Below, piece after piece: positions 10,243-27,407 of a DNA stretch of 27,407 bases (its first letter is position 1; each line of letters opens with the position of its first letter). The notes under the pieces were generated by a model, which worked only from the letters and a program-made list of their open reading frames with translations, had not been told where the DNA came from and did not search any database. The stretch is from Calditrichaceae bacterium (GTDB lineage: Bacteria; Calditrichota; Calditrichia; Calditrichales; Calditrichaceae). The position numbers and the translations under genes were made by a program. The stretch spans positions 1 through 27,407 of the forward strand of contig JANTFQ010000001.1 of assembly GCA_024763405.1 (NCBI GenBank). Direction: 5' to 3'.

Positions 10243-13200
10243 CTAATCTTCTAATTCTTCTAATAAACCGCCTAATCCATCTTCATCCAAATCCACATCC
10301 GCAAAGTCCGAAGGCGTATAAGCGCCTGCTTCGGGGTCCTGGCAGTGTCGAATCAACACACGTAATTCATCCAGATACTGCGACGTCCAGTTACGGATGG
10401 TCTCCTCAAAGTACTGCTCTTTACTATAAGCAAATGTGATCTGGAAAACATTTTCCAGTACGCTGCCGCCGATTTCTAAAACATGTAGTCTTTCACCATC
10501 CGGACTGCGTTCAAATCCGGGCGCAGTCAGCGGTTTCCCTAATAGTTTATTCTCGGCCGAATTTTGCTGAAATTGACCTAAATAATTAAAACCGATTTCA
10601 GGCTGGATGGTATTTGTAATCAGGCCCTCATTTAGATATTTAAGCAGGCCGAAACTAATTCCGTTATTTGGTATTTCCCGGTATTGTTCTTTTACCGCTT
10701 TAATGGATTCTCCCGGATCGACAATTCCTTTTAGTTGCAAATGAACCGGAAACGCAGAAGTAAACCAGCCAATGGTACGGGAAATATCCACATCTTCGAA
10801 AAGGTCTTCCCGGCCGTGACCCTCCATCTCGATTACTATAGAATCCTGGCCGTGCCAGTATTTTGCCGCACGTACCAAAGCTGTGAGTAAAAGCTCGTTT
10901 ATTTGCGTGTGGTAAGCAGCCGGCGCTTCTTTTAGCAACGCTTCGGTTTCTTCTTCGCTGAGGGCTGCGCGTACAATTTGTGTATCTGCTTCTGTGTTTG
11001 TTCCGTTTTTATCTTTTGGCAACGAAGCAATTTTCTGAGCTGCTATTGTATTCCAAAAATCCAATTCGGAATGGACCGCATCCGATGCAGCGTACTGGTT
11101 TATGCGTTCTGCCCAATATTTAAAGGAAGTCGTCTTAGATGGAAGTTTCGGAGGCTGTCCGGCTGACAACTGCTTATATAACGATAACAAATCTTCTGTT
11201 AAAATTCGCCAGGAGACTACATCCACAACAAGATGATGAATAATGAGCAAGAAGTAATCCGGTTTGTCAACGGCTGTTTTAAAATAAGCCGCCCGCAGCA
11301 GAGGCCCTTTGCTTAGGTCTAACGACATCTTAAGTTTAGTAACCTGCTTTTCCAGCACGGCGTCCATCTGTGCCGGATTTACAGAAGATAAATCTGCTGA
11401 ATGCAGAATATCTTCATTGATTTCCCCGGGAATAACCGCTTCAACGGATCCATTGGAACTGTTGAAACAAGTACGCAGAACATCGTGATGAAAAAAAAGA
11501 TGCCCTAAAACTTTTTTTAGGATACCCGTATCCAGAGGATTTTCGAGCGCTACCATCATCGTCTGATTCCAATGGTGCCTGTTTGGTAAATTTAGATTAA
11601 AAAAGGCATGCTGGATGGCCGTTAATGGAATTGTACCGGTAACCAGCCCCTGCTCAGCCCGGATAGCAACCCCTTCTTTGGCAACGGCGGCCAGACCTTC
11701 AATGGTCGGATTTACAAACATCTGTTTGGGGGTAATTTTTAGCCCGGCCTGATTGGCCCGTGCCACCACCTGGATGCTTAATATAGAATCGCCGCCCAGT
11801 TCGAAGAAGTTGTCGCGAATGCCGATTTTTTCATTACCCAATAAATCTTTCCATATGCGGACGAGAATTTCTTCTTTTTCATTGGAAGGGGCGACAAATT
11901 CACTTTCCAGTTGTTCCCGGGTGACTTCAGGTTCCGGTAATGCTTTTTTATCGACTTTTCCGGTGGCAGCCACAGGCATCTCTTCCAGAAAAATAAAAAA
12001 AGCAGGAACCATATATTCCGGTAAAAAGTCTTTTAGGAAAATCTTTAAATTATTTATAGTTGGTTTCTCATTTCCCTGGCATACCAGGTAAGCAGCAAGT
12101 TTTTTATTGCCAGGCGCACCTTTTGCTAAAACAATGGCGTCGCTAATTTGAGGATGATGCATTAAATTGGATTCGATCTCACCCAGTTCGATGCGGAAAC
12201 CCCGTATTTTAACCTGTTGGTCGATACGACCTAAAAATTCAATATTGCCATCCGGTAAATAGCGGCATAAATCACCGCTGGCATACATTCGGCTGCCAGG
12301 CTCGGAAGAATACGGATCGGGAATAAATCGTTCGGCGCTTAATTCGGGGCGGTTTAAATAGCCCCGGGCAACCCCTACTCCACCAATATACATTTCACCG
12401 GGGACACCCAAAGGGGTTGGATTTAATAGTGGGTCCAGAATATAGATTCGGTAATTCGGAATTGGTTTACCGATGGGAATATTGCTTGCATTTTCTGGTA
12501 ATTTGTTGGTTAAATACCATGTCGCGCAAACCGATGTTTCTGTAGGCCCATAGGCATTCCAGAATTTACGGCCCTTTGACCAATGCTTTACCAGTTCGGG
12601 CGTACAGACATCACCTCCGGAGGCCACCATTTGCAAATCGGGAAATTTATCCGCCGGCAGAACAGACAGGATGGAAGGGGGCAATATGGCATTGGTAAGC
12701 CGGTTATCCCGGATCAGACTGGTTAAACCATTTTCCGGGGCCATCTCATCTTCTGCAACCAGATAAAGTGACGCTCCCGAAAGCAATACTTTAAAGAAAT
12801 CACCGACAGATCCATCAAAACTGTATGAAAAATATTGTATGGCCCGTTTGCCAGGCTCCAGGTTAAACATATCTATATAATCATAGGCTAGATTAATTAC
12901 CGTGTTGTGCTGTAAAAGCACTCCTTTTGGTTTTCCGGTGGAACCGGAGGTATAAATCACATAGCACATATTTTGCGGTTGTACATTTGTCAGCGGGTTG
13001 TCACTGGATTGTTCCGCAATTTTCGACCACTGCTGGTCGAGCTCAATCAGTTCTGCATGAAAAGAATTCAATGTTGGTGTATACTTTTTCTGCGTTAAAA
13101 TGAGTTTCAGGCCTGTATCTTCTGCCATATAGCGTAACCGATCTATGGGATAAGCGGGATCCATCGGCACATAAGCGGCACCGGCTTTAAGAATTCCTAA

Positions 13201-16200
13201 AACCCCAATGACCATTTCGAAAGATCGGCTGACAGACAAGCCCACAAAAGATTCGGAGCGAATGCCTTTTCCGATTAAAAAATGGGCCAGCTGATTGGCT
13301 TTTTTATTTAGCTCCGCATAACTCAATACTTGGTTCTTGTAAACTAAAGCGGGCGCATCCGGAGATAACAGGGTTTGTTTTTCGAATAGTGTGTGCAGGC
13401 AGGAATCCTGCGGAGCCGAGACAGGGGGAACATCATTGAATTCGTTTAATAAAAGTTCTGTTTCCTGTACCTTTAACAGTGGAAGAGCCTGAATGGACAA
13501 ATGTGGATTTTCTGTAGCCGACTGAATTAAATTCTTAAAATGTCCGAGCATCCGTTCCATCGTTGATTGATCAAAGAGATCTGTGTTATATTCCCATTCG
13601 CCGCCTATAATCTTATTGTGCTCGGCCATGGATAAGGTTATATCAAATTTAGCGATGCCGGTATCTATTTCCACCGGTTTAAATGCTAAGTTTTGGATTG
13701 TATTGTCTTGTAAAAACTGGGGCTGATAAGCGAACATTACCTGAAACAGAGGATTGTGGCTTAAACTTCGAGGGGTGTTCAGGGAGTCAACCAGTTTTTC
13801 AAATGGTAAATTCTGATGTGCAAATGCATCTGCTGTACGTTTTTTTAACTGCGTTAATAAAGTGGAAAAGGTTTGGTTTGGATAAAAATCTCCCCGGATT
13901 GCAAGTGTATTAATAAAAAAACCAATCATCGGTTCCAGTTCGGGACGGGTACGGTTAGCAACCGGAGTTCCGACAACAATCGTCTCCTCATTAGAATACC
14001 GGTATAACAATAGCTGAAAAGCGGTCATGAGCACTGTAAATGCTGTGGTTTGTACATTTGCCGCTAGTGCATTTATTTGCGTGGTTAGTTCTTTACCTAA
14101 GTCAAAACGGATACGATCGCCTTTAAATGTCTGTATCGATGGTCGCGGACGATCGGTGGGAAGTTCCAGTAATTCCGGGACGTCCATTAATTCTTTTTTC
14201 CAGAAATCGATTTCCTGGTTTAATACATCACCGCTGAAAAATTTTCGTTGCCACGCTGCGTAATCGACATATTGAAATGCCAGTGGTTCAAGTTTTGGTT
14301 TAATATTCATCGAAAAAGTGCTATAGAATGCCAATATATCTTTTACGATAACTCCAATGGACCACCCATCCGAAACAATATGGTGCATGTTTAGCATCAG
14401 GATAAAATCTTCGTTAGCCAGTTTAAGCAAACCCGATCGGAAGAGCGGTCCCTTCGTCAAATCAAAAGGCTTTACCGATTCTTCCTTACAGTATTTAAGA
14501 GCCGCAGTTTCGGCCTTTTTTAAAGGCATTTCCGAAAAATCCTGGCGATAGACTTGAAAGTCAACAGAGTCGAGAATGGTTTGAAAGGCTTTTCCGTCTT
14601 CTGCGTTAAAAACCGTCCGCAGACTTTCATGTCTTTGTACCAGGGCATGCAGGGCTTTGACAAGAGACGTTTCACTTAAATTGCCTTGAATACGAAGGGC
14701 TGTGGGAATATTGTAATTCGCTTTCCCGGGTTCCAGATTATCCAGAAACCACAAACGCTGCTGAGCAAAAGAGAGTTCGAGTGTCGTGTTTCTCTCGATC
14801 CTCTCAAAAGGCAGATAGGCAGAATGCTTATTTATAACTTGCTCGGAGGATTCTTTTAATTTGGCTATGAACGCCTTACTAATTTTAGATTGATGTAAAT
14901 TTGATTGCACAAATTCAAGTACAGAATCTGGAAAATTCTCTATTAAATATTGGGATAAGCCTGCAATGTGCTTCAATTCAAACATGATAGCTACATTCAG
15001 GTCCACATTAAGCTGTTTCTGCATTCGGTTTATAAAATAGGCCGCTTTTAAGGAATCGCCGCCTAATTGAAAAAAACTGTCAAAAACACTTATTTTTTTA
15101 AGATGCAAGGCGTCTTGCCATATATGTAAAAGAATGGTTTCCAGTTCGTTTCGGGGCGCCTGGTAACCGGGACGTAGCAGTTCCATTTCTTCTGGTACTA
15201 TAAATGCGCGGTAGTCGATTTTCCCATTTTCGGTTAAAGGCATCTTCTCAATTGGAATAAAAAAGGACGGTATCATATAATCGGGAAGAAATTCCTGTAT
15301 CTTCTGAGAAAGAATGGCAGGATCAATTTCCTGTTTATGCTCCGGAATAAAAAATACACAAAGCCTTTGCTTAAATGTTAAAACGACAACATCCTTAATT
15401 TCAGGAAGTTTTCGTATAACGGCTTCTATCTCGCCGGGTTCGATTCGGAATCCCCGCAGTTTTATTTGCCGGTCCACACGTCCTAAAAAGTCGATATTCC
15501 CATCCGGTAAAAACCGGGCACGGTCACCACTGCGGTACAGACGGCTTCCTGGAACGGAACTGAAGGGGTTTGGAATAAATTTTTGCGCCGTTAATTCCGG
15601 CTTTCCAAGATAACCACGGGCCAAACCTGCTCCGGCAATACATAATTCACCACTGATACCAGGCGGAACAGGCTGCAACCGGGAATCCAGAATATAGAGC
15701 TGAGTATTGTTTACTCCTTTACCAATGAGCGGTTTGGAAGAAGTTTCTGTTGCCCCCTTCCCGAAAGCGAAAATAGCCGCATCTACGGTGCATTCGGTTG
15801 GCCCGTAAACATTGTAAAAAGTGATATCGGTATTCGTTCTTAATATATTCCATAATTTGGTTCCGATGGCCTCACCGCCAACCAGAACAATAGCGGGTTG
15901 GTGCTTATTCTTATCGAAAAGACCGGATTCAATCATCAAGCTTAATTGTGACGGGGTGCAGTCTAAGGAATTCACTTTATGCGTGTGGATAAATTCCACC
16001 ATCGCATTCCCATCCAGGCGGGTTTCTTCGGGAATAATATGCAGGGTATGGCCATTCGCTAACTGAATCCATTGTTTCACTGAGGTATCAAATGTTAACG
16101 GTCCGTTTAAGCTAAGGTCTAAATGGTGTTGTTGATGCTTGTAGATTTTATCCTGTAAGGCATAAAATAGATTTAAAAGGGAAGAATGACGGATGCCGAT

Positions 16201-18186
16201 TCCCTTTGGTTGACCCGAAGTGCCGGACGTATAGATGATGTAGGCTAAATTATCAGGATGAAGCGTTCTTTTAATATAGGTTTCAGAAACAGAGTCAATT
16301 TGATCCCATTGGCCGTCGATTAAAATTGGATTTACTTTGAGTTCCAGAAGCTCTTTTTCGAGATTAGCCTGCGTGATAATAATGGAAATATTTGCATCCT
16401 CAATCATCAAACGGGTACGTTCGAGTGGCTGAGCGGGATTAAGAGGAACAAAGGTACCGCCGGCTTTCAGTATCGCCCATAAGGCAATGAACATATCGAT
16501 AGAACGCGCGGTATATAAGCCGACAGGGGTTTCGATCTGAACACCTTGTTCTTGTAAAAACCTGGCTAATCGACTGGATTTTTTATCTAATTCTGAAAAA
16601 GTTAGTGAAGTGTCTCTGTAGACCACAGCGGTTTTTTCAGACATTGTTTTACTGGTTTGCTCAAATAGAGTATGTATTAATGATTGTGTGTTAAGGGCTT
16701 TGTCTGTCTGGTTCCATTTTTGAAGAACCGATTGCTTTTGACTCTCGTCCAGCAGACAAATTCGGTTTACCATAATCTGAGGATTATGAAGCACCTGTTT
16801 CAGAATGTGAAGATAGAGGTCTTTAAAAATTCTGATGGTCTCTGTTTTAAAGAGGCTTGTATTATATGCTATCCTTCCTGATAATTTGTTCTCGCTTTCT
16901 TCTATGGTCAGCGTAATATCATATTTTACGGATTCAATTTCCAAATCCATCAACGAAAGAGAAAGGTCCAGAAGTTCCATTTTGGGCTTCGGGGCATTTT
17001 GGAGTAAAAATAAAATCTGAAAATAAGGAGAACGACTGGAATCGCGTTCGGGATGTAATTCTTCAATAATTTGTTCAAAAGGCAAATCCTGATTAGCAAA
17101 GCCGTCCAAAACTGTATTTTTTATCTGTTGTAAAAGCGCATTAAACGTTTGCTCGTCCGATAGATAGGAACGCATGACCAAAGTATTCATAAAATAACCA
17201 ACCAGCCCGGAAATTTCCGGCCGGTCTCGGTTTGCCATTGCAGTGCCTACATTGATATCTTCCTGGTTTGTATAGCGATACAGAAGTGAAAATAATACAG
17301 CTAATAAAACCATATATGGCGTAACATCCTGCGTACGACAAAACTCCCTTAGCGCAGAAGTGAGTTCTTTGGATATTTCAAAATTAATATGCGAACCAGT
17401 GAAGGTTTGAATAGCGGGCCGGGGATAATCAAAGGGAAAATCTAAAACAGGATGGCAGTTTTTTAATTGTTTCTTCCAATAGTCCATTTGTTTGTCTTTT
17501 TGTGGACTTTTTAACCAATTAAGCTCCCATTGCGCATAATCAGCATATTGGAGAGACAAAGGGGGTAAATCGATCTTGTCTTGTGTTTTAAAATTCTGAT
17601 AAAAATAAGAAAATTCTGGTATTATGACGCCTACTGACCATCCGTCGGCGATTATATGATGCATATTGATGAGTAAAATATGTTCGGTTTCCGAAACACG
17701 CAGGATTGAACTGCGGATTAATGGACCTTTTTCCAGATTAAAAGGTTTGTGAATTTCGGATGCTAAAAAATCCCGTATTTTTTTCTCGATATTATCCTTT
17801 GGGATTGTTGAAAAATCATGTAATTCAATTTTAAGGTTTAATTCTGACCGAATTTTTTGAACTGGCTTTCCATCCACAATACAAAAATAGGACCGCATCA
17901 CTTCATGCCGTCTGATAACGGAATTAAGAGCAAATTCGAGGGCAGTGATATTTGTTTTTCCCTCTAATTTTAAAGCAGACGGCATATTATAGAAGGAGCT
18001 GCTGGGCGCTAACTGTTGAAGAAACCATAATTGCTTCTGTTGAACAGAAACAGGAAAGTCTTGCTTGTTTTCCCGCTTTTCTATTTTTTCCCGCTTTACG
18101 GTTTTGCCTGATTTTTGTAATTTTTTTAATAAAGCTTCACGCTGTGCCGGAGATAATTGAGCAAGTCGTTTTCCAACATCGGCCAT
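10243..18186 (-). CDS. NRPS C, 2647 aa, bimodular: docking helix-C(LCL)-A(Glu-like)-T-C(LCL)-A(unknown)-T-E-COM
   Basis: ORF track. C1 SVQQKQLWFLQQL..HHIIADGWS. A1 code DTKDLGVVDK is one residue from the surfactin Glu code DAKDLGVVDK. T1 is GGDSLKAA. C2 HHIVSDGWS. A2 code is DGGIAGAVCK. T2 GGDSILSIQ is pre-E type. E domain HHLVVDVVSW, EGHGRE, RTIGWFT, FNYLGQF. Tail TPSDF. Confidence 0.97.
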   Translation of the reverse strand: MADVGKRLAQLSPAQREALLKKLQKSGKTVKREKIEKRENKQDFPVSVQQKQLWFLQQLAPSSSFYNMPSALKLEGKTNITALEFALNSVIRRHEVMRSYFCIVDGKPVQKIRSELNLKIELHDFSTIPKDNIEKKIRDFLASEIHKPFNLEKGPLIRSSILRVSETEHILLINMHHIIADGWSVGVIIPEFSYFYQNFKTQDKIDLPPLSLQYADYAQWELNWLKSPQKDKQMDYWKKQLKNCHPVLDFPFDYPRPAIQTFTGSHINFEISKELTSALREFCRTQDVTPYMVLLAVLFSLLYRYTNQEDINVGTAMANRDRPEISGLVGYFMNTLVMRSYLSDEQTFNALLQQIKNTVLDGFANQDLPFEQIIEELHPERDSSRSPYFQILFLLQNAPKPKMELLDLSLSLMDLEIESVKYDITLTIEESENKLSGRIAYNTSLFKTETIRIFKDLYLHILKQVLHNPQIMVNRICLLDESQKQSVLQKWNQTDKALNTQSLIHTLFEQTSKTMSEKTAVVYRDTSLTFSELDKKSSRLARFLQEQGVQIETPVGLYTARSIDMFIALWAILKAGGTFVPLNPAQPLERTRLMIEDANISIIITQANLEKELLELKVNPILIDGQWDQIDSVSETYIKRTLHPDNLAYIIYTSGTSGQPKGIGIRHSSLLNLFYALQDKIYKHQQHHLDLSLNGPLTFDTSVKQWIQLANGHTLHIIPEETRLDGNAMVEFIHTHKVNSLDCTPSQLSLMIESGLFDKNKHQPAIVLVGGEAIGTKLWNILRTNTDITFYNVYGPTECTVDAAIFAFGKGATETSSKPLIGKGVNNTQLYILDSRLQPVPPGISGELCIAGAGLARGYLGKPELTAQKFIPNPFSSVPGSRLYRSGDRARFLPDGNIDFLGRVDRQIKLRGFRIEPGEIEAVIRKLPEIKDVVVLTFKQRLCVFFIPEHKQEIDPAILSQKIQEFLPDYMIPSFFIPIEKMPLTENGKIDYRAFIVPEEMELLRPGYQAPRNELETILLHIWQDALHLKKISVFDSFFQLGGDSLKAAYFINRMQKQLNVDLNVAIMFELKHIAGLSQYLIENFPDSVLEFVQSNLHQSKISKAFIAKLKESSEQVINKHSAYLPFERIERNTTLELSFAQQRLWFLDNLEPGKANYNIPTALRIQGNLSETSLVKALHALVQRHESLRTVFNAEDGKAFQTILDSVDFQVYRQDFSEMPLKKAETAALKYCKEESVKPFDLTKGPLFRSGLLKLANEDFILMLNMHHIVSDGWSIGVIVKDILAFYSTFSMNIKPKLEPLAFQYVDYAAWQRKFFSGDVLNQEIDFWKKELMDVPELLELPTDRPRPSIQTFKGDRIRFDLGKELTTQINALAANVQTTAFTVLMTAFQLLLYRYSNEETIVVGTPVANRTRPELEPMIGFFINTLAIRGDFYPNQTFSTLLTQLKKRTADAFAHQNLPFEKLVDSLNTPRSLSHNPLFQVMFAYQPQFLQDNTIQNLAFKPVEIDTGIAKFDITLSMAEHNKIIGGEWEYNTDLFDQSTMERMLGHFKNLIQSATENPHLSIQALPLLKVQETELLLNEFNDVPPVSAPQDSCLHTLFEKQTLLSPDAPALVYKNQVLSYAELNKKANQLAHFLIGKGIRSESFVGLSVSRSFEMVIGVLGILKAGAAYVPMDPAYPIDRLRYMAEDTGLKLILTQKKYTPTLNSFHAELIELDQQWSKIAEQSSDNPLTNVQPQNMCYVIYTSGSTGKPKGVLLQHNTVINLAYDYIDMFNLEPGKRAIQYFSYSFDGSVGDFFKVLLSGASLYLVAEDEMAPENGLTSLIRDNRLTNAILPPSILSVLPADKFPDLQMVASGGDVCTPELVKHWSKGRKFWNAYGPTETSVCATWYLTNKLPENASNIPIGKPIPNYRIYILDPLLNPTPLGVPGEMYIGGVGVARGYLNRPELSAERFIPDPYSSEPGSRMYASGDLCRYLPDGNIEFLGRIDQQVKIRGFRIELGEIESNLMHHPQISDAIVLAKGAPGNKKLAAYLVCQGNEKPTINNLKIFLKDFLPEYMVPAFFIFLEEMPVAATGKVDKKALPEPEVTREQLESEFVAPSNEKEEILVRIWKDLLGNEKIGIRDNFFELGGDSILSIQVVARANQAGLKITPKQMFVNPTIEGLAAVAKEGVAIRAEQGLVTGTIPLTAIQHAFFNLNLPNRHHWNQTMMVALENPLDTGILKKVLGHLFFHHDVLRTCFNSSNGSVEAVIPGEINEDILHSADLSSVNPAQMDAVLEKQVTKLKMSLDLSKGPLLRAAYFKTAVDKPDYFLLIIHHLVVDVVSWRILTEDLLSLYKQLSAGQPPKLPSKTTSFKYWAERINQYAASDAVHSELDFWNTIAAQKIASLPKDKNGTNTEADTQIVRAALSEEETEALLKEAPAAYHTQINELLLTALVRAAKYWHGQDSIVIEMEGHGREDLFEDVDISRTIGWFTSAFPVHLQLKGIVDPGESIKAVKEQYREIPNNGISFGLLKYLNEGLITNTIQPEIGFNYLGQFQQNSAENKLLGKPLTAPGFERSPDGERLHVLEIGGSVLENVFQITFAYSKEQYFEETIRNWTSQYLDELRVLIRHCQDPEAGAYTPSDFADVDLDEDGLGGLLEELED
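10340..11630 (-). other. Epimerization domain of NRPS C (approximate bounds)
   Basis: LTAIQHAFF, HHLVVDVVSWRIL, MEGHGRE, RTIGWFTSAFP, FNYLGQF; preceded by a GGDSI-type T domain. Confidence 0.92.
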
Positions 18187-18187
18187 A

Positions 18188-21100
18188 TTAATCCTCGTCT
18201 AATTCAGAAAAAAGATCTTCTAAAGCCTCTTCATTCAAATCAACGTCCTGGAAATCTGACGGTGTATATACGCCGCCGGCGTCATTTTTCAAAAAGGCCA
18301 GGAGTTTAATTAATTCCCCTTCGTAAAGGGCTAGAAATTTTTTAATGGATTCTGTTCTAAATTGATTCTTACTGTACATAATATCAATTAAAAGGTTTTT
18401 CCCTTTTATACTGGCGCTGATTTCGAGCAGATAACTGCGACGTGACCTGGGGCTGCGTTCGTCATCATTAAAACCAGCCAGAGGTTTAAACAGGCTTAAT
18501 TCCTCCGAATCAGGCTGGAATTGTCCGAGATAATTGAATACAATTTCGGGATTCTGTAAAGCTTTTAATTTTTCAGAGAAATCACTCCTAAGGTATTTTA
18601 ATATCCCAAAACCAATGCCATTGTTCGGAATATTGCGTAATTGCTCTTTAACAGCGATAATGGATTTTCCGGTTTCGCTCATTTGTGAAAGATCCAGGAA
18701 AACAGGATACATACTAGTAAACCAGCCAACGGTGCGGGCCAGGCTAACCTCTTCCATAATATCTTCGCGTCCATGACCTTCCATCGCCAGCCAGATTCTG
18801 CTGTGACCGCTCCAGATTTTAAAGGCCTTAATCAAAGCGGTCAGCAGAATATCATTAATCTGCGTATTATAAACCGTATGCGCACCCCGCAGCAGATATT
18901 CGGTCTCCGTTTCATCCAGAACAGTCGAAACAACGGCTGCAGAAGCTTCTGTATTTTCACCATCCGGAAAATCAGGAACCAATTTATCAAAGCGCTTTTC
19001 AGCCAGCGTGTTCCAATAGGGGATTTCTTCCTGTAATTTTTTATTATCCGCGTAAGCCGATAATTTTTCCGTCCATTGTTTAAAGGAAGTGGTCTTTGCC
19101 GGTAAAACCAGTTCGGCGTTTGCCGTTAATTGTCCGTATGCAGTTTGCATGTCTTCACTCAAAATGCGCCAGGAAAGACCGTCGACCGCCAGATGATGGA
19201 CTGCAATGAAAATGAGGTCATTTTTTCCGCTTCCGCGCTTAAAAATTGCTGCCTTAATAATAGGGCCGGTCTCAAGATTTAGTGAACTTTGTAATTTAGA
19301 AATCTGTCTATGAATATTTTCTGACTGAGCAGGCTCCTCTAATTTCGATAAATCAAATATAGAAATCAAATCCGATTCTTCTTTCTCTTCAATTTTTGCC
19401 TGCCAGATTTGATCGGTTTTCCAGAAGCGTAATCGCAGTGCATCATGATGTTCCACTATTTTTTTGATAACCTGAGATAATATCGTTTCATCCACGGAAG
19501 CGGCCGCTTCTAACATGAGGGACTGGTTCCAGTGCCAGGGCTCCGGATGATTCTGATTAAAAAATTCAATCTGGATAGGAGATAAAAGCACCGGACCCGA
19601 AACAGTACCTTGTTCGGCTTCTATTCTTTTGGTCTGTTCAGCAACCGCGGCCAGGCTCTCAATGGTCGGATTTTCAAACATCTGCTTCGGTGTAATGCGT
19701 AAACCGGCCTGGCCGGCGCGGGCCACCACCTGGATGCTTAAAATAGAATCGCCGCCCAGCTCGAAGAAATTATCCCGCGTGCCAATCTGTTCGATGCCAA
19801 GAACCGCTTTCCATGTTTCGCTAAGAATTTTTTCTTTATCCGTGGAAGCTTCGATAAATTCAGTTCCCAAATCCGAACGGTCAAATTCCGGTTCTGGAAG
19901 CGCCCGACGGTTTACTTTTCCGTTGGGCAATAGTGGAAAAGCGTTTAAAGTAACGAAAGCAGCGGGCACCATATATTCGGGCAGAGTTTCTTTCAGGAAG
20001 CTGCGTATTTCAGGTATTTCAATATTTTTGTCCCTTTCCGCAACCAGGTAGGCGGCCAGCCGTTTGTCGCCCTCTTTTACTTCGCGCACAAGAACAACCG
20101 CATCTTTTACCGATTCGTGTTCCCTCAAACGGGATTCTATTTCGCCCAGTTCCATTCGGAATCCGCGCAGTTTTACCTGATGGTCCACCCGGCCGAGAAA
20201 CTCTACATTGCCGTCGGAAAGCCAGCGCACTAAATCGCCGGTCTTGTACATACGCGCCGCTTTGTCTTTGCAAAACGGATCGGCTATAAATTTTTCGGCA
20301 GTCAGTTCGGGACGGTTTAAATACCCTCTTGCCAACCCGTCTCCGGCGATGTATAACTCGCCTGCGGCTCCGACAGGAACCGGCTGCCCGCTTTGATCCA
20401 GGATGTAAAAGCGCGCGTTTGAAACAGGTTTTCCGATGACCGGGCGCAGTGGGCTGCTTTGTACATTACAAATAGTGGAATCAACCGTACATTCGGTCGG
20501 TCCGTACATATTGAAAAAAAGTATGTCCTTCGAGTCGACCAGTTTTTTCCAGGTTACCTCGTCGATGGCTTCGCCGCCGGGCAGAACCGCCAGCGGTTTC
20601 CATTCATCAGCATCCAGCAATCCAGCGTCTAATAGTAATTTTAGCTGTGCGGGTACACAATCCAGAACTTGGATCTTATATTTTCGGATATAGTCCAGCA
20701 TCGTATCACCGCTGCCTCGTGTTTCCATAGGAATAATTTGTAATCCGTGGCCGTGTGCCAGCATCACAATCTGCTGAACCGATGCATCAAAAGGTATGGG
20801 TGCATTTAAGCTTATTTTTAATTTTGTATTTCCAAAACAGCTGTAAATGGTTTGCTTTAAATTCTCTGCCAGGTGTAAAGCTGATTTATGGGAAATCATA
20901 ACCCCTTTGGGCTTTCCGGTGGAGCCGGAGGTGTAAATTATGTACGCCAGACTGTCTGTACTCTGCGTTAAATTTGGATTTTGAACAGATTCATTTGAGA
21001 TTTCCGCTCCCACCGTATCCAGAGCGATGACGCGCGTATTCGTTAACGCTAAATCAGTCACGGTCTCGGAATGAGTCAGCAGAAAGGGAACATGGGCGTC

Positions 21101-24100
21101 TGTAAGCATAAAATCGAGCCGTTCCTCTGGATAGGCCGGATCCAGCGGCAGATAGGCGCAGCCGGCTTTCCAGATGGCCAGCATGCTGACAATCATGTCG
21201 GTGGAGCGTTCCATTAAAATGCCGATAATGCTTTCTTGTTTTACCCCGGATTTTAATAGAAAAGAAGCAACCTGATTGGCGCGGGCGTTCAACTGTTCAA
21301 AGTTCAGCGTTTCGTCATTAATGCCTGCGGCAAATTGCTGAGGTTGTATTTTGGCCTGTTTTTCAATCAGATGATGGAGACATTTATCGGTCGGGTAATC
21401 AAGCATAGCGGGACGCCACTCAACGAGCATTTTATGCTGTTCCTCTTCTTTTAACAGAGGCAGCTCGGAAATATTTTGATCAGGATTTCGGACAATGGAT
21501 TCAAGAAGCGTGGTAAAATGACCCATTATTCGCTGGATGGTTTCTTCCTTAAACAGGCTGGTTTTATATTCCAGAATGGCAACCATGCGATTGGTATGCT
21601 CAATAATTTCTAAATTCAGATCAAATTTAGCGGTTTCTGTTTCAATGGCAAAAGGGGAGTAAGAGAGTTCTTCTAAATGTATTTCCTGAATATCCGAATG
21701 CTGCATGGAAAACATAACCTGAAAGAGTGGCGTATGGTTCATTTCCCGTTCCGGCTGGAGTGTGTCCACTAATTTTTCGAAGGGCATGTCCTGATGGTCA
21801 AAAGCGTCCATTGCTATTTTTTTGACCAGCCGTAGATGATGCCGGAATGAGCGGTTTTTGTTTATTGTACTGCGTAACACCAGGGTATTTACAAAAAAGC
21901 CAATTAATGGTTCAATTTCTCTGCGGTTACGGTTTGCCACCGGCGTCCCGATAGTAAAATCATCCTGGCCGGAATAGCGGTAGAGTAGGGTTTCGAATGC
22001 TGTCAGCAGAACCATAAATAAGGTGGTTTCGTGCTCTTTACTCAGTTGATTCAGTTGTTGGTAGAGGGCATCCGGTACACGATGCACCAACCGTTTTCCC
22101 TGATATGAAACCATAGCAGGTCTGGGAAAATCAGTAGGTAGTTCCAAAAAGAAGGAAGCGCCATCCAACTGTTTTTTCCAGAACGTCATTTCGTTTTCCA
22201 GGCGCGAACCGCTTAACCACTGACGTTGCCAGGCTGCAAAATCGGCATATTGAATTTGTAACGGAGTCAAAGGAATGGGTTCGTCTTTTATCAGCGCGTT
22301 GTAGATAAGTGAAAGTTCCCTAACCAGTACATTGACAGACCAGCCGTCGGATATAATATGATGCACCGTAATCATCAGTATATATTCCTGATCGGAAATT
22401 TTAAAAAGTTTGGCTCGTATCAACGGCGCCTTGCTCAAATCGAACGGTTTAGCAGATTCCTGATTGGCCCGTAGAATGAGATCGCTATCCGAAACACCGG
22501 CAGAATCTACGACCGGTAAGTCCAATTTTAATTGCGGTAAAATAACCTGCGATGCTTTTCCTTCTGCTGAGCTGCGAAAAATGGTACGAAGATTTTCGTG
22601 GCGCTGAACAATAAGATTTAAAGCCTGCAACATCTTTTCGACATCGAGTGTACCTTTGAGGCGAATAGCTCCCGGAATATTGTATTGTGGATTCCCTGGT
22701 TCCATTTGATCCAGGAACCACAAACGCTGTTGAGCAAAGGAAAGAGGCAGCTCGTCTGTTCGCGGAATGACCGGGATGCCTTGTATGGCAGTCGATTGAG
22801 AATGGGCAATATTCTTTTCCACAGGATAGCCGAACGCTTTAGCCAGTTCCCAGGTTATATCGCTTAAAAAATTATTTTTATGATGTTCACGCCAACGATC
22901 GGTGACGCTGGTATCGATATTTTTATGTAAATAAAATTTAAAATCGCCCACCATCTGAGAATGTTTACTCACCCCGTCTGTCATTTTATTACCCTGATAG
23001 GGTTTCAGCATATCCGGTTCAAAATCGATGTCTATAAAATTGCATATTCGCAGCATTTCGTTATACGGATCGAGTAATAGATCTTCAAAACGTAACCGTA
23101 TCTTTCGTTCATCGGGAATATCCTGTAAAAAGCGATTTATGTTTTGGTGACTGATAATATAGATCAATTCACCCAGTTCCCGCCGGGTAAAAGGATGTTC
23201 ATAACGAAAGAAATTCTGATCCAGTTTAGCTTCGATAAAAGAATACACCATGGCATAGGGATGCCGCAATAAATGGATGTACTTAGCCTGAGTAAAGTCC
23301 TGTTCCGCACGTTTTAAAATTTCAGGGTCAAAAGGATAAGTGGGCGATTTATCTACTAATATGCGGTCACCCATCCATTCCTGCAATGTGCGGTAATATT
23401 CTTTTACGCTCATATTCTGCGCCACAAAACCATCCATAATCCGGCGTGCCTCATCCACATCGGTCTGTTTTAATTCCTTGATAGCGCGGATGGTTGCTTC
23501 CAACCAGATTTCCAGGCCTTCTTCTGAAAAAGCTTCCCTGCGTTCCCGCACTGTGTTAAAAGAAAGCAAATCAAGTTCCGGCGGGGAGAAAAGTTTTTGA
23601 TTGCCGGCCAGCATCACGCGCAGCAGGGTAGAACCGGAACGCGGCGGGGATAGAACAAAGATGGCTGAAGGGTTTTTAGTAGAATCTGTTTCCGTACGTT
23701 GCGGCAGAGGCGTAATGATTTTTCGAATAGTGTCAATCTGTGGTTGTCCGATTTTATGCACTACTTCTTCGGCGACGTCAATCAGTTTATAAAGTTGATG
23801 AACCGATTCGTCTAATTCGAAACGTTCGCGGGTCAATTGCGGGTAATAATTAACAATATATCCGGCTAACTCGGCGATGGTCGGCGCTTTAAATACGACG
23901 CTTACATGGGTCACTTCGCCAAATTCTTTTTGCAAACGGTTGGCAAATACAGCGGCCTTTAATGAATTTCCGCCCAGTTCAAAAAAATTGTCGTGGATTC
24001 CTACTCTATCAATCGTCAAAATTTCGCCCCAAATCTCGGACAGAAATTGCTCTAGATTATTTCGGGGAGCCGTATATTGGGCTTCCATATCCGGACGTGC

Positions 24101-27100
24101 GTGACCAGGGGCAGGCAAAGCGTTTTTATCCACTTTCCCGTTTGGCGTTAACGGAATGCTGTCCATTTCCACCCAGGCAAAAGGAACCATATAATCGGGC
24201 AGTTTTTCGAGCAGGAAAGCACGTAGAACAGATGTTTTTATCTCCTGTTTTTCATTGGGAACAATATAAGCCGTTAGTACTTTGTCACCAGGATTATCCT
24301 GGCGCGCCAAAACCACGGCGTCTTTAAGCAGAGGATTTGTTTTTAAAACGGACTCAATTTCTCCCAGTTCAATCCGAAACCCGCGAATTTTTACCTGCTG
24401 ATCGATACGGGCCAGAAATTCAATATTTCCATCCGGAAGCCAGCGTACCAGGTCGCCGGTTTTATACAGCATTGAATTGCCGGAAGGGTCAAACGGGTTT
24501 TTTATAAAACGTTCGGCGGTTAACTCTTTCCGTTTCAAATATTCTAAAGCGAGGCCATCGCCACCCACATATAATTCACCCGGGATGCCAATTGGGACTA
24601 CCTGTATTTTTTTATTGAATACATACATCGTTGAATTCGCGATTGGTTTCCCGATTGGCACATTTGTGTCTGTTTCAGCAATTTTTTTAACTTTATACCA
24701 GGTAGAAAAAGTAGTGTTTTCCGTAGGACCATATACGTGTAATAAATTTTGTGGTGGTTCTGAGAGCGCTATTTTTCGAACAGAAGACGGATCCACCATT
24801 TCTCCGCCGAACATTACGGTATCCAGTGTTTTAAATGCGGAGGAATTCTCAGCGGCAATCTGGTTGAAAAGAGCGGTTGTTAGAAAAAGATGGCTAATTT
24901 CCTTATCCTTTAAAGCCTGAATAAAACTCTGTGTGGAAAGCATCACATCTTTTGGAATAGCAACGAGCCTGGCGCCGTTTAGTAAAGCGCCCCAGATTTC
25001 AAAAGTGGCAGCGTCAAAAGCAGCGTTTGACGCCTGAGCAATATTATGATTTGCTTTGATACGTACATAATCGGTATTTATAACCAGACGAATAACTGCC
25101 CGGTGGGGAACGATAACACCCTTTGGAATTCCGGTTGAACCGGAAGTGTAAATAATGTAGGCGCGATCTAAAGGTTTAGATAATACGGCAAGTGATTCGG
25201 CACTATAATCGGCAAGTAATTGGTCGTTGTCAATAGCCAAAGAAACGGCGCTGCCTTCGGGAAGATCGTCCAAAAGTTCCGTTTTTGTAAGTAATAATGA
25301 GGCCTCGGTATCTTTGAGGATAAATGATAAACGGTCCTTTGGATAAGAGATATCTAATGGAACATAAGCTGCTCCGGCTTTTAAGATGGCAAGGAAACCA
25401 ATGATCATATCCATCGAGCGCTCCATATAAAGAGCAACAAGATGACCGGGCTCCACCCCTTTCTCAATCAATAAATGGGCGAGTTGATTTGATTTGCTGT
25501 TTAATTCTTTATAAGTATAACTGAGGCTGTCATAGCGAACTGCAATCGCATCCGGTGTCTTTGCAACCTGCTGTTCAAATAATTCGGGAATGGAAGAGTC
25601 GGCCGGATAATTTGTAGCGGTCTGATTCCATTCGGTTAAAATGCGTGTTTGTTCTTTCTCGGAAATCAATGAAAGATTGGATATTTTCTCACTTGGATTG
25701 TTGAGTGCATTTTTGAGTAAGGTATGGAAATAACTGCTAAAACGACTGATGGTCTCTTCCGAGAACAGGTCGCGGTTATATTCAAAGGTACATTTGATAT
25801 GGTCCTCATGCTCGAGCATCAGAAGCAACAGGTCAAATTTGGCGACTTCTACTTCAATATCAACGATTTCGAGCGTAATCGAATCCATTGTAACACGTTC
25901 AAACGGTACCGTTTGTAAATCGAACATCACCTGAAAGAGCGGGGAATGCCCTAATTGAGGAGCGCCTGAAACGGATTCAACAATTTTTTCGAAGGGCACA
26001 TCCTGATTGTCGGAAGCGGTGATTACATCATTTTTAACACGCTGTATCAATTCGGCAAAGGTCATATCCGTTCTAAAATCAGCCCGTAAGACAACGGTGT
26101 TTACGAATAATCCAATGATGGATTCAATCTCGGCCCGGTTGCGGTTGGCAATGGGAGCGCCAACGCCAAAATCATCCTGCCCGCTGACTTTGTGCAGGAA
26201 TACCTGAAAAACAGCCATAATCAGAGCATACAGGGAAACTCCTTGTTCACGGCTCAGACGTCGCATCTTTTCGGTCAGTGCTTTTTTAATGGTAAAAAGG
26301 TGCTGGCGGCCGTTGTAAGTCTGGAAATCCGGACGGGGATAATCCGTATATAAATCTAAAAAATCGGGCATTCCCGATAAAGCATTTTTCCAGTACTGAA
26401 GCTGTTTCTCGATGGTGTTTCCAACAGCTCGTTCGGCCTGCCAGGCGGCATAATCCGCATATTGCAAATGCAAATCGGGTAATTCTGTTTGTGGTTCCTT
26501 TACAAGAATTCGATAATTGGAAATAATCTCATTTATAATAATTCCGATAGACCAGCCATCCGTGACAATATGATGGATGTCCAAACTGAGTACATACTGG
26601 CCTGGTTTGATTTTTAAAATGAACGATCGAATCAGCGGCGGGTTCGTCAAATCAAAAGGTTTGGCAGCGTCTTCTTTTAATAATTCCTGTATACGCTGAT
26701 CCATCTGCGCGGCAGGGGTGTTGCTAATGTCAATTTTAGGAATATCAATTTTATAGTTAGAAACGATAATCTGTTCCGCTTCGCCTTTTTCGTTGGTCAT
26801 AAAACCGGCGCGTAATACTTCGTGGCGGCGGATAATTTCATGGATACTTTTTCTTAAAATTTCCAGGTCGATATTGCCCGTTAACCGAATCGCCGAAGGA
26901 ATATTATAAAAGGCCGAATCCGGATCGAGTTGGTTCATAAACCACAAGCGCATCTGTGAAGATGAAATAGGGTACCGATGCTGTTCTTTTCTCTTCGTAA
27001 TCCGTCTGTTTTTTTGATCCGGTTTTTTTTGCGCTTGAAGTTTTTTTAGCAGCAGTTCGCGCTTTTCCGGAGAGAGTCCGGCCAATCGTTTGTGTATAGC

Positions 27101-27106
27101 TGACAT
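18188..27106 (-). CDS. NRPS B, 2972 aa: docking helix-C(LCL)-A(Ile-like)-T-sulfotransferase-C(LCL)-A(Gln)-T-E-COM
   Basis: ORF track. C1 HHIVTDGWS. A1 code DAFFMGVTFK is close to Ile codes DAFFLGVTFK/DAFFYGITFK. T1 is GGNSLKAA. A ~290-aa insert carries PPRSGSTLLRVMLAG. C2 HHIISDGWS. A2 code DAQDLGMVDK is close to the lichenysin Gln code DAQDLGVVDK. T2 GGDSILSIQ. E domain HHLAVDGLSW, EGHGRE, RTVGWFT. Tail TPSDF. Confidence 0.97.
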   Translation of the reverse strand: MSAIHKRLAGLSPEKRELLLKKLQAQKKPDQKNRRITKRKEQHRYPISSSQMRLWFMNQLDPDSAFYNIPSAIRLTGNIDLEILRKSIHEIIRRHEVLRAGFMTNEKGEAEQIIVSNYKIDIPKIDISNTPAAQMDQRIQELLKEDAAKPFDLTNPPLIRSFILKIKPGQYVLSLDIHHIVTDGWSIGIIINEIISNYRILVKEPQTELPDLHLQYADYAAWQAERAVGNTIEKQLQYWKNALSGMPDFLDLYTDYPRPDFQTYNGRQHLFTIKKALTEKMRRLSREQGVSLYALIMAVFQVFLHKVSGQDDFGVGAPIANRNRAEIESIIGLFVNTVVLRADFRTDMTFAELIQRVKNDVITASDNQDVPFEKIVESVSGAPQLGHSPLFQVMFDLQTVPFERVTMDSITLEIVDIEVEVAKFDLLLLMLEHEDHIKCTFEYNRDLFSEETISRFSSYFHTLLKNALNNPSEKISNLSLISEKEQTRILTEWNQTATNYPADSSIPELFEQQVAKTPDAIAVRYDSLSYTYKELNSKSNQLAHLLIEKGVEPGHLVALYMERSMDMIIGFLAILKAGAAYVPLDISYPKDRLSFILKDTEASLLLTKTELLDDLPEGSAVSLAIDNDQLLADYSAESLAVLSKPLDRAYIIYTSGSTGIPKGVIVPHRAVIRLVINTDYVRIKANHNIAQASNAAFDAATFEIWGALLNGARLVAIPKDVMLSTQSFIQALKDKEISHLFLTTALFNQIAAENSSAFKTLDTVMFGGEMVDPSSVRKIALSEPPQNLLHVYGPTENTTFSTWYKVKKIAETDTNVPIGKPIANSTMYVFNKKIQVVPIGIPGELYVGGDGLALEYLKRKELTAERFIKNPFDPSGNSMLYKTGDLVRWLPDGNIEFLARIDQQVKIRGFRIELGEIESVLKTNPLLKDAVVLARQDNPGDKVLTAYIVPNEKQEIKTSVLRAFLLEKLPDYMVPFAWVEMDSIPLTPNGKVDKNALPAPGHARPDMEAQYTAPRNNLEQFLSEIWGEILTIDRVGIHDNFFELGGNSLKAAVFANRLQKEFGEVTHVSVVFKAPTIAELAGYIVNYYPQLTRERFELDESVHQLYKLIDVAEEVVHKIGQPQIDTIRKIITPLPQRTETDSTKNPSAIFVLSPPRSGSTLLRVMLAGNQKLFSPPELDLLSFNTVRERREAFSEEGLEIWLEATIRAIKELKQTDVDEARRIMDGFVAQNMSVKEYYRTLQEWMGDRILVDKSPTYPFDPEILKRAEQDFTQAKYIHLLRHPYAMVYSFIEAKLDQNFFRYEHPFTRRELGELIYIISHQNINRFLQDIPDERKIRLRFEDLLLDPYNEMLRICNFIDIDFEPDMLKPYQGNKMTDGVSKHSQMVGDFKFYLHKNIDTSVTDRWREHHKNNFLSDITWELAKAFGYPVEKNIAHSQSTAIQGIPVIPRTDELPLSFAQQRLWFLDQMEPGNPQYNIPGAIRLKGTLDVEKMLQALNLIVQRHENLRTIFRSSAEGKASQVILPQLKLDLPVVDSAGVSDSDLILRANQESAKPFDLSKAPLIRAKLFKISDQEYILMITVHHIISDGWSVNVLVRELSLIYNALIKDEPIPLTPLQIQYADFAAWQRQWLSGSRLENEMTFWKKQLDGASFFLELPTDFPRPAMVSYQGKRLVHRVPDALYQQLNQLSKEHETTLFMVLLTAFETLLYRYSGQDDFTIGTPVANRNRREIEPLIGFFVNTLVLRSTINKNRSFRHHLRLVKKIAMDAFDHQDMPFEKLVDTLQPEREMNHTPLFQVMFSMQHSDIQEIHLEELSYSPFAIETETAKFDLNLEIIEHTNRMVAILEYKTSLFKEETIQRIMGHFTTLLESIVRNPDQNISELPLLKEEEQHKMLVEWRPAMLDYPTDKCLHHLIEKQAKIQPQQFAAGINDETLNFEQLNARANQVASFLLKSGVKQESIIGILMERSTDMIVSMLAIWKAGCAYLPLDPAYPEERLDFMLTDAHVPFLLTHSETVTDLALTNTRVIALDTVGAEISNESVQNPNLTQSTDSLAYIIYTSGSTGKPKGVMISHKSALHLAENLKQTIYSCFGNTKLKISLNAPIPFDASVQQIVMLAHGHGLQIIPMETRGSGDTMLDYIRKYKIQVLDCVPAQLKLLLDAGLLDADEWKPLAVLPGGEAIDEVTWKKLVDSKDILFFNMYGPTECTVDSTICNVQSSPLRPVIGKPVSNARFYILDQSGQPVPVGAAGELYIAGDGLARGYLNRPELTAEKFIADPFCKDKAARMYKTGDLVRWLSDGNVEFLGRVDHQVKLRGFRMELGEIESRLREHESVKDAVVLVREVKEGDKRLAAYLVAERDKNIEIPEIRSFLKETLPEYMVPAAFVTLNAFPLLPNGKVNRRALPEPEFDRSDLGTEFIEASTDKEKILSETWKAVLGIEQIGTRDNFFELGGDSILSIQVVARAGQAGLRITPKQMFENPTIESLAAVAEQTKRIEAEQGTVSGPVLLSPIQIEFFNQNHPEPWHWNQSLMLEAAASVDETILSQVIKKIVEHHDALRLRFWKTDQIWQAKIEEKEESDLISIFDLSKLEEPAQSENIHRQISKLQSSLNLETGPIIKAAIFKRGSGKNDLIFIAVHHLAVDGLSWRILSEDMQTAYGQLTANAELVLPAKTTSFKQWTEKLSAYADNKKLQEEIPYWNTLAEKRFDKLVPDFPDGENTEASAAVVSTVLDETETEYLLRGAHTVYNTQINDILLTALIKAFKIWSGHSRIWLAMEGHGREDIMEEVSLARTVGWFTSMYPVFLDLSQMSETGKSIIAVKEQLRNIPNNGIGFGILKYLRSDFSEKLKALQNPEIVFNYLGQFQPDSEELSLFKPLAGFNDDERSPRSRRSYLLEISASIKGKNLLIDIMYSKNQFRTESIKKFLALYEGELIKLLAFLKNDAGGVYTPSDFQDVDLNEEALEDLFSELDED
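18192..18196 (-). promoter_or_regulatory. Putative Shine-Dalgarno (GAGGA) for NRPS C, inside the last codons of NRPS B
   Basis: GAGGA-TTAAT-ATG. The B stop and C start are separated by 1 nt, consistent with translational coupling. Confidence 0.65.
18290..19590 (-). other. Epimerization domain of NRPS B (approximate bounds)
   Basis: LSPIQIEFF, HHLAVDGLSWRIL, MEGHGRE, RTVGWFTSMYP, FNYLGQF; preceded by a GGDSI-type T domain. Confidence 0.93.
22817..23677 (-). other. Embedded PAPS-dependent sulfotransferase domain (CurM/Ols ST-like) within NRPS B
   Basis: Sequence shows IFVLSPPRSGSTLLRVMLAG (5'-phosphosulfate-binding loop), FSPPEL, LVDKSPTY, YIHLLRHPY (3'-phosphate-binding region), RFEDL, DFEPDMLKPYQG and MTDGV. 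These match the motif order of curacin CurM and olefin-synthase ST domains as I recall them. Confidence 0.92.
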
Positions 27107-27146: not shown

Positions 27147-27407
27147 CTATTCATCATTTAGCAGTTTTTCGAGTTCTTCATCGGATAAATCTTCGATTTC
27201 GGACAGCATCGATTCCAGTTCGTCACTATCCTGGTATTCGGCCTGGGCCTCTGTAATGGAAAGGGCAATTCCTTCCACGGTTGGTTTTTCAAATAAGGTG
27301 CGCAGCGAAATTTCCACATCAAACTCTTCGCGAATACGTGAGACTACCTGTGTGGCCATCATCGAATGACCGCCCAAATCAAAGAAACTGTCCTTAACGC
27401 CGGCCTT
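27147..27407 (-). CDS. NRPS (or hybrid PKS/NRPS) A, C-terminal fragment only: T domain + acidic docking helix
   Basis: Frame is open to the window edge: KAGVKDSFFDLGGHSMMATQVVSRIREEF...LSEIEDLSDEELEKLLNDE*. The ORF-track TTG start at 27377 is internal. Confidence 0.93.
   Translation of the reverse strand, partial: KAGVKDSFFDLGGHSMMATQVVSRIREEFDVEISLRTLFEKPTVEGIALSITEAQAEYQDSDELESMLSEIEDLSDEELEKLLNDE

Follow-up and report, generated by a model that had tools for sequence, protein, structure and literature searches.

A predicted E-to-LCL seam between tandem nonribosomal peptide synthetase subunits in Calditrichota

Results

The locus

The DNA analysed here, referred to as the window, makes up the entire contig C1 (27,407 nucleotides; JANTFQ010000001.1) from the genome of a Calditrichaceae bacterium (GCA_024763405.1), which is assembled in 402 contigs and is 72.6% complete. 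This genome is called G000 and its relatives G001 and so on; G000 and G001 make up genus g1. The minus strand of the window is filled by four co-directional nonribosomal peptide synthetase (NRPS) genes, B, C, D and E, together with the last 86 codons of gene A (Table 1). B and C encode tandem bimodular subunits of one kind, here called BC-type. At the seam between them, the intact epimerization (E) domain that ends B is followed by the first condensation domain of C (C-C1), which is predicted to be LCL-type, the class with an L-configured donor upstream, and not DCL-type, the class that receives D-configured chains.

The junction between B and C

The C-terminus of B consists of a carrier (T) domain with the motif GGDSILSIQ, the E domain and a tail that reads YTPSDFQDVDL...SELDED (full end YTPSDFQDVDLNEEALEDLFSELDED). 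One base separates the TAA stop codon of B (18190-18188) from the ATG of C (18186). C begins with MADVGKRLAQLSPAQREALLKKLQ, which is followed by PVSVQQKQLWFLQQL, YNMP and HHIIADGWSVG. All motifs that the initial annotation of this DNA had quoted were found where it had placed them. G001 shows this junction too, likewise with 1-nt spacing, whereas the two genes overlap by 20 nt in G005 and are separated by a gap of 192-413 nt in the remaining genomes with two BC-type subunits. The translational coupling of B and C that had been proposed therefore holds for genus g1 (G000 and G001, 1-nt spacing) and does not extend to the other two-copy genomes. Misassembly was ruled out as the cause of the seam, since the same junction occurs in G001 and in six other genomes, and a wrong start codon for C was ruled out because the orthologs keep the head from Met1.

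The junction was compared with other places where an E domain is followed by a condensation domain. In a survey across phyla of 79 NRPS loci, collected with an LCL query from cyanobacteria, myxobacteria, Acidobacteriota, Chloroflexota and others, all 15 such junctions (5 in cis and 10 between genes) led into a DCL domain. The related Calditrichota clusters contained 36 junctions into DCL and 8 into LCL domains, and every one of these 8 was the B-to-C seam. In the literature, we found no case in which tandem paralogous subunits meet with an intact E domain next to an LCL domain, and neither this cluster nor Caldithrix NRPS were the subject of any paper found.

Table 1. Coordinates of the genes and domains in the window.
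Feature	Position	Strand	Description
Subunit A, 3' end	27147..27407	-	T domain (GGHS) and acidic two-helix tail (...LSEIEDLSDEELEKLLNDE); donor for the B head by gene order
Gene B (P0001, 2972 aa)	18188..27106	-	LCL-A-T-sulfotransferase-LCL-A-T-E; first tandem BC-type subunit (Pfam and custom profiles)
B T2 carrier domain	19634..19840	-	E-partner type, GGDSILSIQ
B epimerization domain, aa 2516-2949	18260..19561	-	every core motif intact
B C-terminal tail of COM-donor type, aa 2950-2972	18191..18259	-	TPSDF motif, ...SELDED end
B stop codon TAA	18188-18190	-	sequence
Gene C (P0002, 2647 aa)	10243..18186	-	LCL-A-T-LCL-A-T-E; second tandem BC-type subunit; without sulfotransferase domain
C N-terminal basic head, aa 1-38	18073..18186	-	contains LSPAQREALLKKLQ; class shared with the heads of B and subunit E
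C-C1 condensation domain, aa 39-492	16711..18072	-	LCL-type; subclade III of the BC-type head domains
C epimerization domain and COM-donor tail	10246..11601	-	TPSDF motif, ...LLEELED end
Gene D (P0003, 2155 aa)	3700..10167	-	DCL-A-T-LCL-A-T and acidic SDEE tail
D head (MNKSKQKNIEAVYPLSPMQQGMLF) and DCL condensation domain	8788..10167	-	sequence, profile and structure-homolog scores
Subunit E, 5' part	3..3731	-	head contains LSPEKRKLLEQRLKQK; LCL-A-T-LCL...; remainder on contig C13

Subtype of the condensation domains C-C1 and D-C1

The subtype of C-C1 was determined with two profiles, one made from 88 condensation domains preceded in cis by a T domain, the other from 38 condensation domains preceded by an E domain, all taken from this cluster family and with the subunit heads excluded. 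C-C1 scored 555 bits on the post-T profile and 234 bits on the post-E profile and resembled every other LCL head. At the 24 discriminating columns, where the LCL and DCL classes differ in near-fixed residues, it has 15 LCL states, 2 DCL states and 7 others. Its nearest solved structures were Txo2, Txo1 and TycC (291-303 bits), and SrfA-C, McyB, PvdL and TycB reached 110-133 bits. The first condensation domain of D (D-C1) showed the mirror image, with McyB at 402 bits and PvdL, BacC, SrfA-C and TycB at 269-310 bits.

D-C1 is a DCL domain by sequence type, by its head YPLSPMQQGMLF, by its position after the E domain of C and by the glutamate at its ERTNYP position. This bears out the earlier description of the C-to-D junction as a textbook transition from an E domain with a communication-mediating (COM) tail into a DCL domain. 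For C-C1, the profile scores, the column states and the structure matches agree with its earlier assignment and classify its sequence as LCL-type, neither DCL nor dual. By gene order, the donor of C-C1 would be module 2 of B. This module closes with an intact E domain and would not provide the L-configured donor expected for an LCL domain. If A and not B is the real donor, C-C1 would receive the L-configured chain that its type calls for.

Glu386 of GrsB1 enforces the D-donor preference, and the exchange E386L flips this preference (Peng et al. 2024, PMC10949931). The local DCL domains fit the reported role of an acidic residue, with a glutamate at the ERTNYP position in 37 of 38, whereas C-C1 and its relatives behind an E domain lack a consistent acidic residue; the column equated with GrsB1 E386 is occupied by I, S, L or N in the post-E LCL heads. 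This column was mapped by position (P0003 E386; HH at 147-148) and could be off by one residue; because of a one-residue alignment gap, the residue of C-C1 is either Ile or Glu. When the gap was shifted by one residue, a glutamate was found in 2 of the 8 post-E heads, and the same glutamate is common in heads that follow the plain T domain of A. With either placement of the gap, the post-E heads could not be distinguished from the post-T heads at this column, and no convergence towards DCL was seen.

The epimerization domain of B

The E domain of B contains the motifs HHLAVDGLSW, EGHGRE, RTVGWFT and FNYLG, is preceded by a partner T domain of the GGDSI type and matches the E domains of PvdL, TycA, TycB and GrsA with 310-330 bits. 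HHxxxDxxSW, EGHGRE, RTVGWFT and FNYLG are kept in the first-copy E domains of all eight two-copy genomes, and these domains are 39-45% identical between genera. The dN/dS between G000 and G001 was about 0.14 for the E domain of B, 0.139 for the E domain of C and 0.03-0.12 for the other domains of B; because dS is saturated (>1), these values are rough and are read only as far below 1. With its core motifs present and a dN/dS equal to that of the E domain of C, the E domain of B is intact, as had been stated before. It is under purifying selection like the E domain of C, which feeds a DCL domain, and has probably been kept functional.

Clusters with one and with two BC-type subunits

The window is part of a polyketide synthase (PKS)-NRPS lipopeptide cluster that is conserved across the order of this genome (Calditrichota). 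Contigs C1, C13, C59 and C131 of G000 are pieces of this one cluster. The full order was seen in G001, G010 and G011 and reads: PKS genes, A, BC-type subunit(s), D, E, a protein with a type IX secretion system (T9SS) tail, D', F and a major facilitator superfamily (MFS) transporter. Subunit A has the domains C-A-T and an acidic SDEE tail and is 1117-1140 aa long where it is complete in the relatives. Subunit E has an LSPEKR head, an E domain and the basic tail LDNKKLDKV...KKKK. D', which is located on contig C13, starts with a DCL head (MSENIKDIYPLSP), and F consists of four modules and a thioesterase (TE).

The stretch between A and D was resolved in 19 genomes. A single BC-type subunit was found there in 11 genomes from several families (G007, G015, G020, G025-G031 and G040), and two tandem BC-type subunits were found in 8 genomes (G000, G001, G005, G008, G010, G011, G017 and G024). 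The two-copy genomes represent five genera of one family, and genus g7 has both states. All 8 two-copy genomes contain the E-to-LCL seam; the first E domain was lost in none of them, and in none was a DCL head gained.

Ancestry of the BC-type subunits

The condensation domains at the heads of the BC-type subunits, 30 of 30, formed one clade within the LCL domains (support 98 with FastTree and 81/95 with IQ-TREE). Subclade I of this clade contained first or single copies, and subclade II contained the single copies of g7 and G040 together with the second copies of G001, G011 and G008. Subclade III (support 100/99) contained second copies only, among them C-C1 of the window, and its members stand behind an E-ended subunit in 5 of 5 cases. 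In the single-copy clusters, heads of clades I and II sit directly after A, between A and D. A search for related loci that started from the alignment of subclade III ran on generic LCL patterns; it found ordinary LCL domains of many phyla and no closer relatives.

B and C are 37-45% identical per domain, which points to old paralogs. The C subunits of two different genera, G001:C52 112586-121540 and G011:C1 60250-69237, are 92-100% identical at the protein level from the head to about residue 2470. Beyond this residue the identity drops to 30-56%, and G001 switches to a genus-native E domain and a tail like that of G000. These sequences point to a recent horizontal exchange of the C subunit with a breakpoint at the T2/E boundary. 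The pattern suggests that modules are exchanged horizontally while the D-facing E domain and tail stay resident. Within genus g1, the C subunit of G000 differs from that of G001 in that its head comes from another clade and the sulfotransferase domain is missing.

Docking elements

One tail type, xSDFxxxxLxxxxLxDLLSELxx, is shared by B, C and the single-copy subunits, and B and C share one head type, RLxxL(S/T)PExRELLxKKL. When one genome per genus was compared, the identity of the tails was 0.58 for B-B, 0.57 for C-C and 0.58 for B-C, and that of the heads was 0.53, 0.59 and 0.51, respectively. No position-specific docking code was detected, as first and second copies were indistinguishable by their heads or tails. 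The tail of A should therefore see both heads and the head of D both tails, and it is probable that no code enforces the order B before C.

A co-variation of B and C within genomes was not found either. The heads were 0.51 identical within and 0.52 between genomes and the tails 0.57 and 0.59, and the permutation mean was as high as the observed one in 4444 of 5000 cases for the heads and in 4635 of 5000 for the tails. The 15/19 identity of the heads quoted in the initial annotation is thus family background and no special signal, with no excess of likeness within the genome.

The tail of B is of the COM-donor type and belongs to the same type as the tails that precede D in the 11 single-copy clusters. 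A COM acceptor is a short N-terminal peptide placed directly on a DCL domain. D is canonical in this respect, whereas C carries a 38-residue LSPxxR helix on an LCL domain. Interchangeable subunits are expected to have equivalent upstream and downstream docking elements, and this is what B and C have. From these features, the head of C is probably of the kind that accepts from A, and the tail of B of the kind that feeds D. A predicted complex of B aa 2516-2972 (E domain and tail) with C aa 1-495 (head and C-C1), computed without controls, had a score of 0.01 and gave no answer.

Two opposite charge codes were seen along the cluster. Acidic tails face basic heads at the transitions from A to B, from B or C to D and from D to E. 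Basic tails (KKGKKRRKK; RVDRGSRRVKR) face acidic or neutral heads (MSENIKD; MSDEKEILIDEDEV) at the transitions from E to D' and from D' to F, with the reversed-charge sites at L001 13220-13320, 11560-11649, 5203-5300 and 4980-5069. The TPSDF motif is absent from three E-ended BC-type subunits (G017:C70 23800-32703, G024:C495 7522-16071 and G027:C3 136914-145874). Their tails read ESKIFDVDL... or FDQVFAPEE... and retain the final LLSEL helix. In G005, the tail of A (C5 32702-36067) consists of one acidic helix (EELARLLDELENPDDDAD), lacks the second helix with LSDEE and resembles the last helix of the E-domain tails.

DCL domains available to B

Five of the two-copy genomes are 95-99% complete, and each of them has exactly two DCL domains, D and D', both within the cluster. 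In 16 of 16 clusters D' comes after subunit E, and the basic tail of E faces the non-basic head of D'. With only two DCL domains, and with D' always behind the basic-tailed subunit E, there is no spare DCL partner for B. By its head type, D is predicted to be the sole charge-matched D-accepting entry for the tails of B and C. The natural acceptor of B had been proposed to be D or another DCL subunit outside the window. D is retained as a candidate by its DCL head and the matching tail type of B, whereas the other subunit is not, as only D' exists and is always found behind the basic-tailed E.

Other features of the cluster

Genes D and E overlap by 32 nt (window 3700-3731), and the corresponding overlap in G005 is 41 nt. 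The sulfotransferase domain of B (PF13469, PF00685) is located between T1 and C2 at window 22906-23685 (B aa 1141-1400). Such a domain is present in most BC-type subunits of the relatives; it is missing from C of the window and from the single copies of G026 and G029, and subunit E of G010 and G004 also has one. The B subunit of G001 (C52 103654-112584) is split within A2 into frames of 1998 aa and 973 aa by a frameshift or an assembly error.

Between E and D', contig C13 of G000 encodes a secreted protein of 450 aa with a T9SS C-terminal sorting domain (PF18962; L001:11791-13143). A secreted protein of 450-660 aa was found at the same spot inside the NRPS operon in most of the full clusters inspected, the sorting domain being checked on the G000 copy only. 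In four g7 genomes, subunit A has the layout LCL-A-T-T-sulfotransferase and 1563-1572 aa (G007:C1 ~1672403-1677094, G019:C150, G020:C6 and G022:C240). It has an extra carrier domain and the sulfotransferase and no acidic docking tail, and the following subunit still has the LSPEKR head. G007 and G020 are single-copy genomes, and the contigs of G019 and G022 end before the copy number can be read. Subunit F is variable. In G026 (C9 25473-37277) it contains an internal E-DCL pair in cis, and in G027:C3 101896-116070, G030:C1 859229-873610 and G020:C6 3092-17083 the last domain recognised is an E domain, with a profile set that holds no thioesterase.

Discussion

As judged from the layouts compared here, the E-to-LCL mismatch between B and C is the seam left when a second whole BC-type subunit was placed in tandem. 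The BC-type subunit consists of an LSPxxR head, LCL-A-T-(sulfotransferase)-LCL-A-T-E and a TPSDF acidic tail. In a single-copy cluster, the commoner layout, it would take an L-configured chain from A, which ends with a T domain and an acidic tail, and would pass a D-configured chain on to D, from the E-COM tail to the DCL head. With each tandem copy bringing its own head and tail, the E-COM tail of B now abuts the LCL head of C. With equivalent heads and tails, B and C could each dock to A and to D. The LCL type of C-C1, the intact and constrained E domain of B and the D-feeding type of its tail would make D the cognate acceptor of B by stereochemistry as well as by docking. We give about an even chance to the proposal that B and C are mainly alternative, parallel feeders of D, which would lead to two peptide series, A-B-D... 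and A-C-D..., with D and not C as the acceptor of B.

Several points weigh against a parallel use of B and C. Colinearity is the usual state of NRPS clusters, and all 8 two-copy genomes have B and C next to each other in the same orientation. The heads of subclade III could be specialised for the position after an E domain, because no single-copy member shows an uptake from A. The A tail of G005 resembles the last helix of the E-domain tails, and such a tail might therefore dock on an LSPxxR head. In addition, the dN/dS values on which the constraint of the E domain is judged are rough, as noted above.

The gene order and adjacency in 8 genomes of 5 genera, and the well-supported restriction of subclade III to positions behind E-ended subunits, speak for a colinear line in which C-C1, of LCL ancestry, tolerates or prefers D donors. 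The product would then be a lipopeptide of about 15 residues with a D residue at the second position of B. The purifying selection on the E domain of B agrees with such a line. The glycopeptide NRPS provide a precedent for a condensation domain whose clade is unlike its stereochemistry (Rausch et al. 2007, PMC1894796), and one residue can be enough to reverse which donor stereochemistry a condensation domain prefers (Peng et al. 2024, PMC10949931). However, C-C1 shows no shift towards DCL, with 15 LCL against 2 DCL states in the 24 columns, and the post-E heads have no consistent glutamate at the E386-equivalent column, where glutamate is common after a plain T domain. In subclade II, the second-copy heads are closely related to heads placed after A, which has no E domain, and as no docking code separates B from C a bypass would be expected anyway. 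We regard the colinear line with a D-accepting C-C1 as the main rival, though rather unlikely.

A related idea is that the subclade III heads of five genomes, including that of the window, are unrecognised D-donor-accepting condensation domains with a full LCL signature. From the sequences at hand we consider this unlikely. If it were true, NaPDoS, antiSMASH and Florine would mispredict the stereochemistry, and a colinear E-to-'LCL' handover would be real.

The line could also be colinear if the E domain of B were chemically silent and served as a scaffold for the docking tail, so that the LCL domain takes the L epimer from the equilibrium on B T2. The LCL type of C-C1 and the gene order agree with this, and glycopeptide NRPS are known to include E domains that are inactive (Rausch et al. 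2007, PMC1894796). Yet the catalytic motifs are intact in the first copies of all 8 genomes despite the divergence of these domains between genera, the whole-domain dN/dS is no higher than that of the E domain that feeds a DCL domain, and a scaffold role would not preserve the catalytic His and Glu. We consider a silent E domain quite improbable. A third DCL-headed subunit encoded elsewhere, for which the incomplete G000 assembly and the further DCL head D' on contig C13 could be quoted, is largely refuted and highly improbable, since the five nearly complete two-copy genomes hold only D and D' inside the cluster and D' is always paired with subunit E by its distinct basic tail and non-basic head.

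The seam can be compared with known assembly lines. In SrfA-A/B/C, TycA/B/C and GrsA/B, E-ended subunits hand over to DCL-headed subunits through COM domains (Hahn and Stachelhaus 2004, as cited in PMC8949500). As in these surfactin, tyrocidine and gramicidin S systems, B and C end with T (GGDSI)-E and a TPSDF acidic helix, and D begins with a short basic peptide, YPLSPMQQGMLF and a DCL domain. In contrast to them, the COM-type tail of B precedes a 38-residue LSPxxR head and an LCL domain in the gene order, and three E-ended subunits share two DCL heads. The C-to-D and the E-to-D' junctions are textbook COM-type handovers from E to DCL (PMC8949500; Rausch et al. 2007, PMC1894796).

Alternative use of B and C would resemble assembly lines with equivalent docking elements, as B and C resemble each other in head and tail no less than orthologs do. 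The vatiamide pathway is an assembly line with interchangeable or promiscuous docking. In the rhabdopeptide/xenortide NRPS, promiscuous or shared docking gives several products (10.1101/349555 = PMC6195595; PMC9872161). The cluster described here differs from these lines by its bimodular subunits with E-COM tails and shows no sign of iterative use, and its parallel use is deduced from sequence and not from products. In the glycopeptide NRPS, the E domains upstream of DCL-derived condensation domains are lost or inactive (Rausch et al. 2007, PMC1894796). There, too, the clade of the condensation domain is at odds with the expected upstream delivery. The difference is that in the present case the E domain in front of the LCL domain is intact and constrained, and the boundary between the subunits was made by gene insertion.

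The rule that a condensation domain after an E domain is DCL-type is used by every NRPS structure predictor. The B-to-C seam is a conserved natural exception to this rule with an intact E domain, and its evolutionary cause is clear, namely the tandem insertion of a second complete subunit. The strictness of LCL domains against D donors could be examined in this natural setting, as could the control that short docking elements exert over the subunit order. Should D be fed by B and C as alternatives, the locus would be a natural plug-in site for bimodular cassettes and a useful template for engineering, where plug-in cassettes are swapped between genera while the E domain and the tail remain resident. 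In conclusion, the cluster represents a large lipopeptide pathway with sulfotransferase domains, uncharacterised and widespread in Calditrichota, and its seam may be a branch point at which one enzyme or the other joins the same assembly line.

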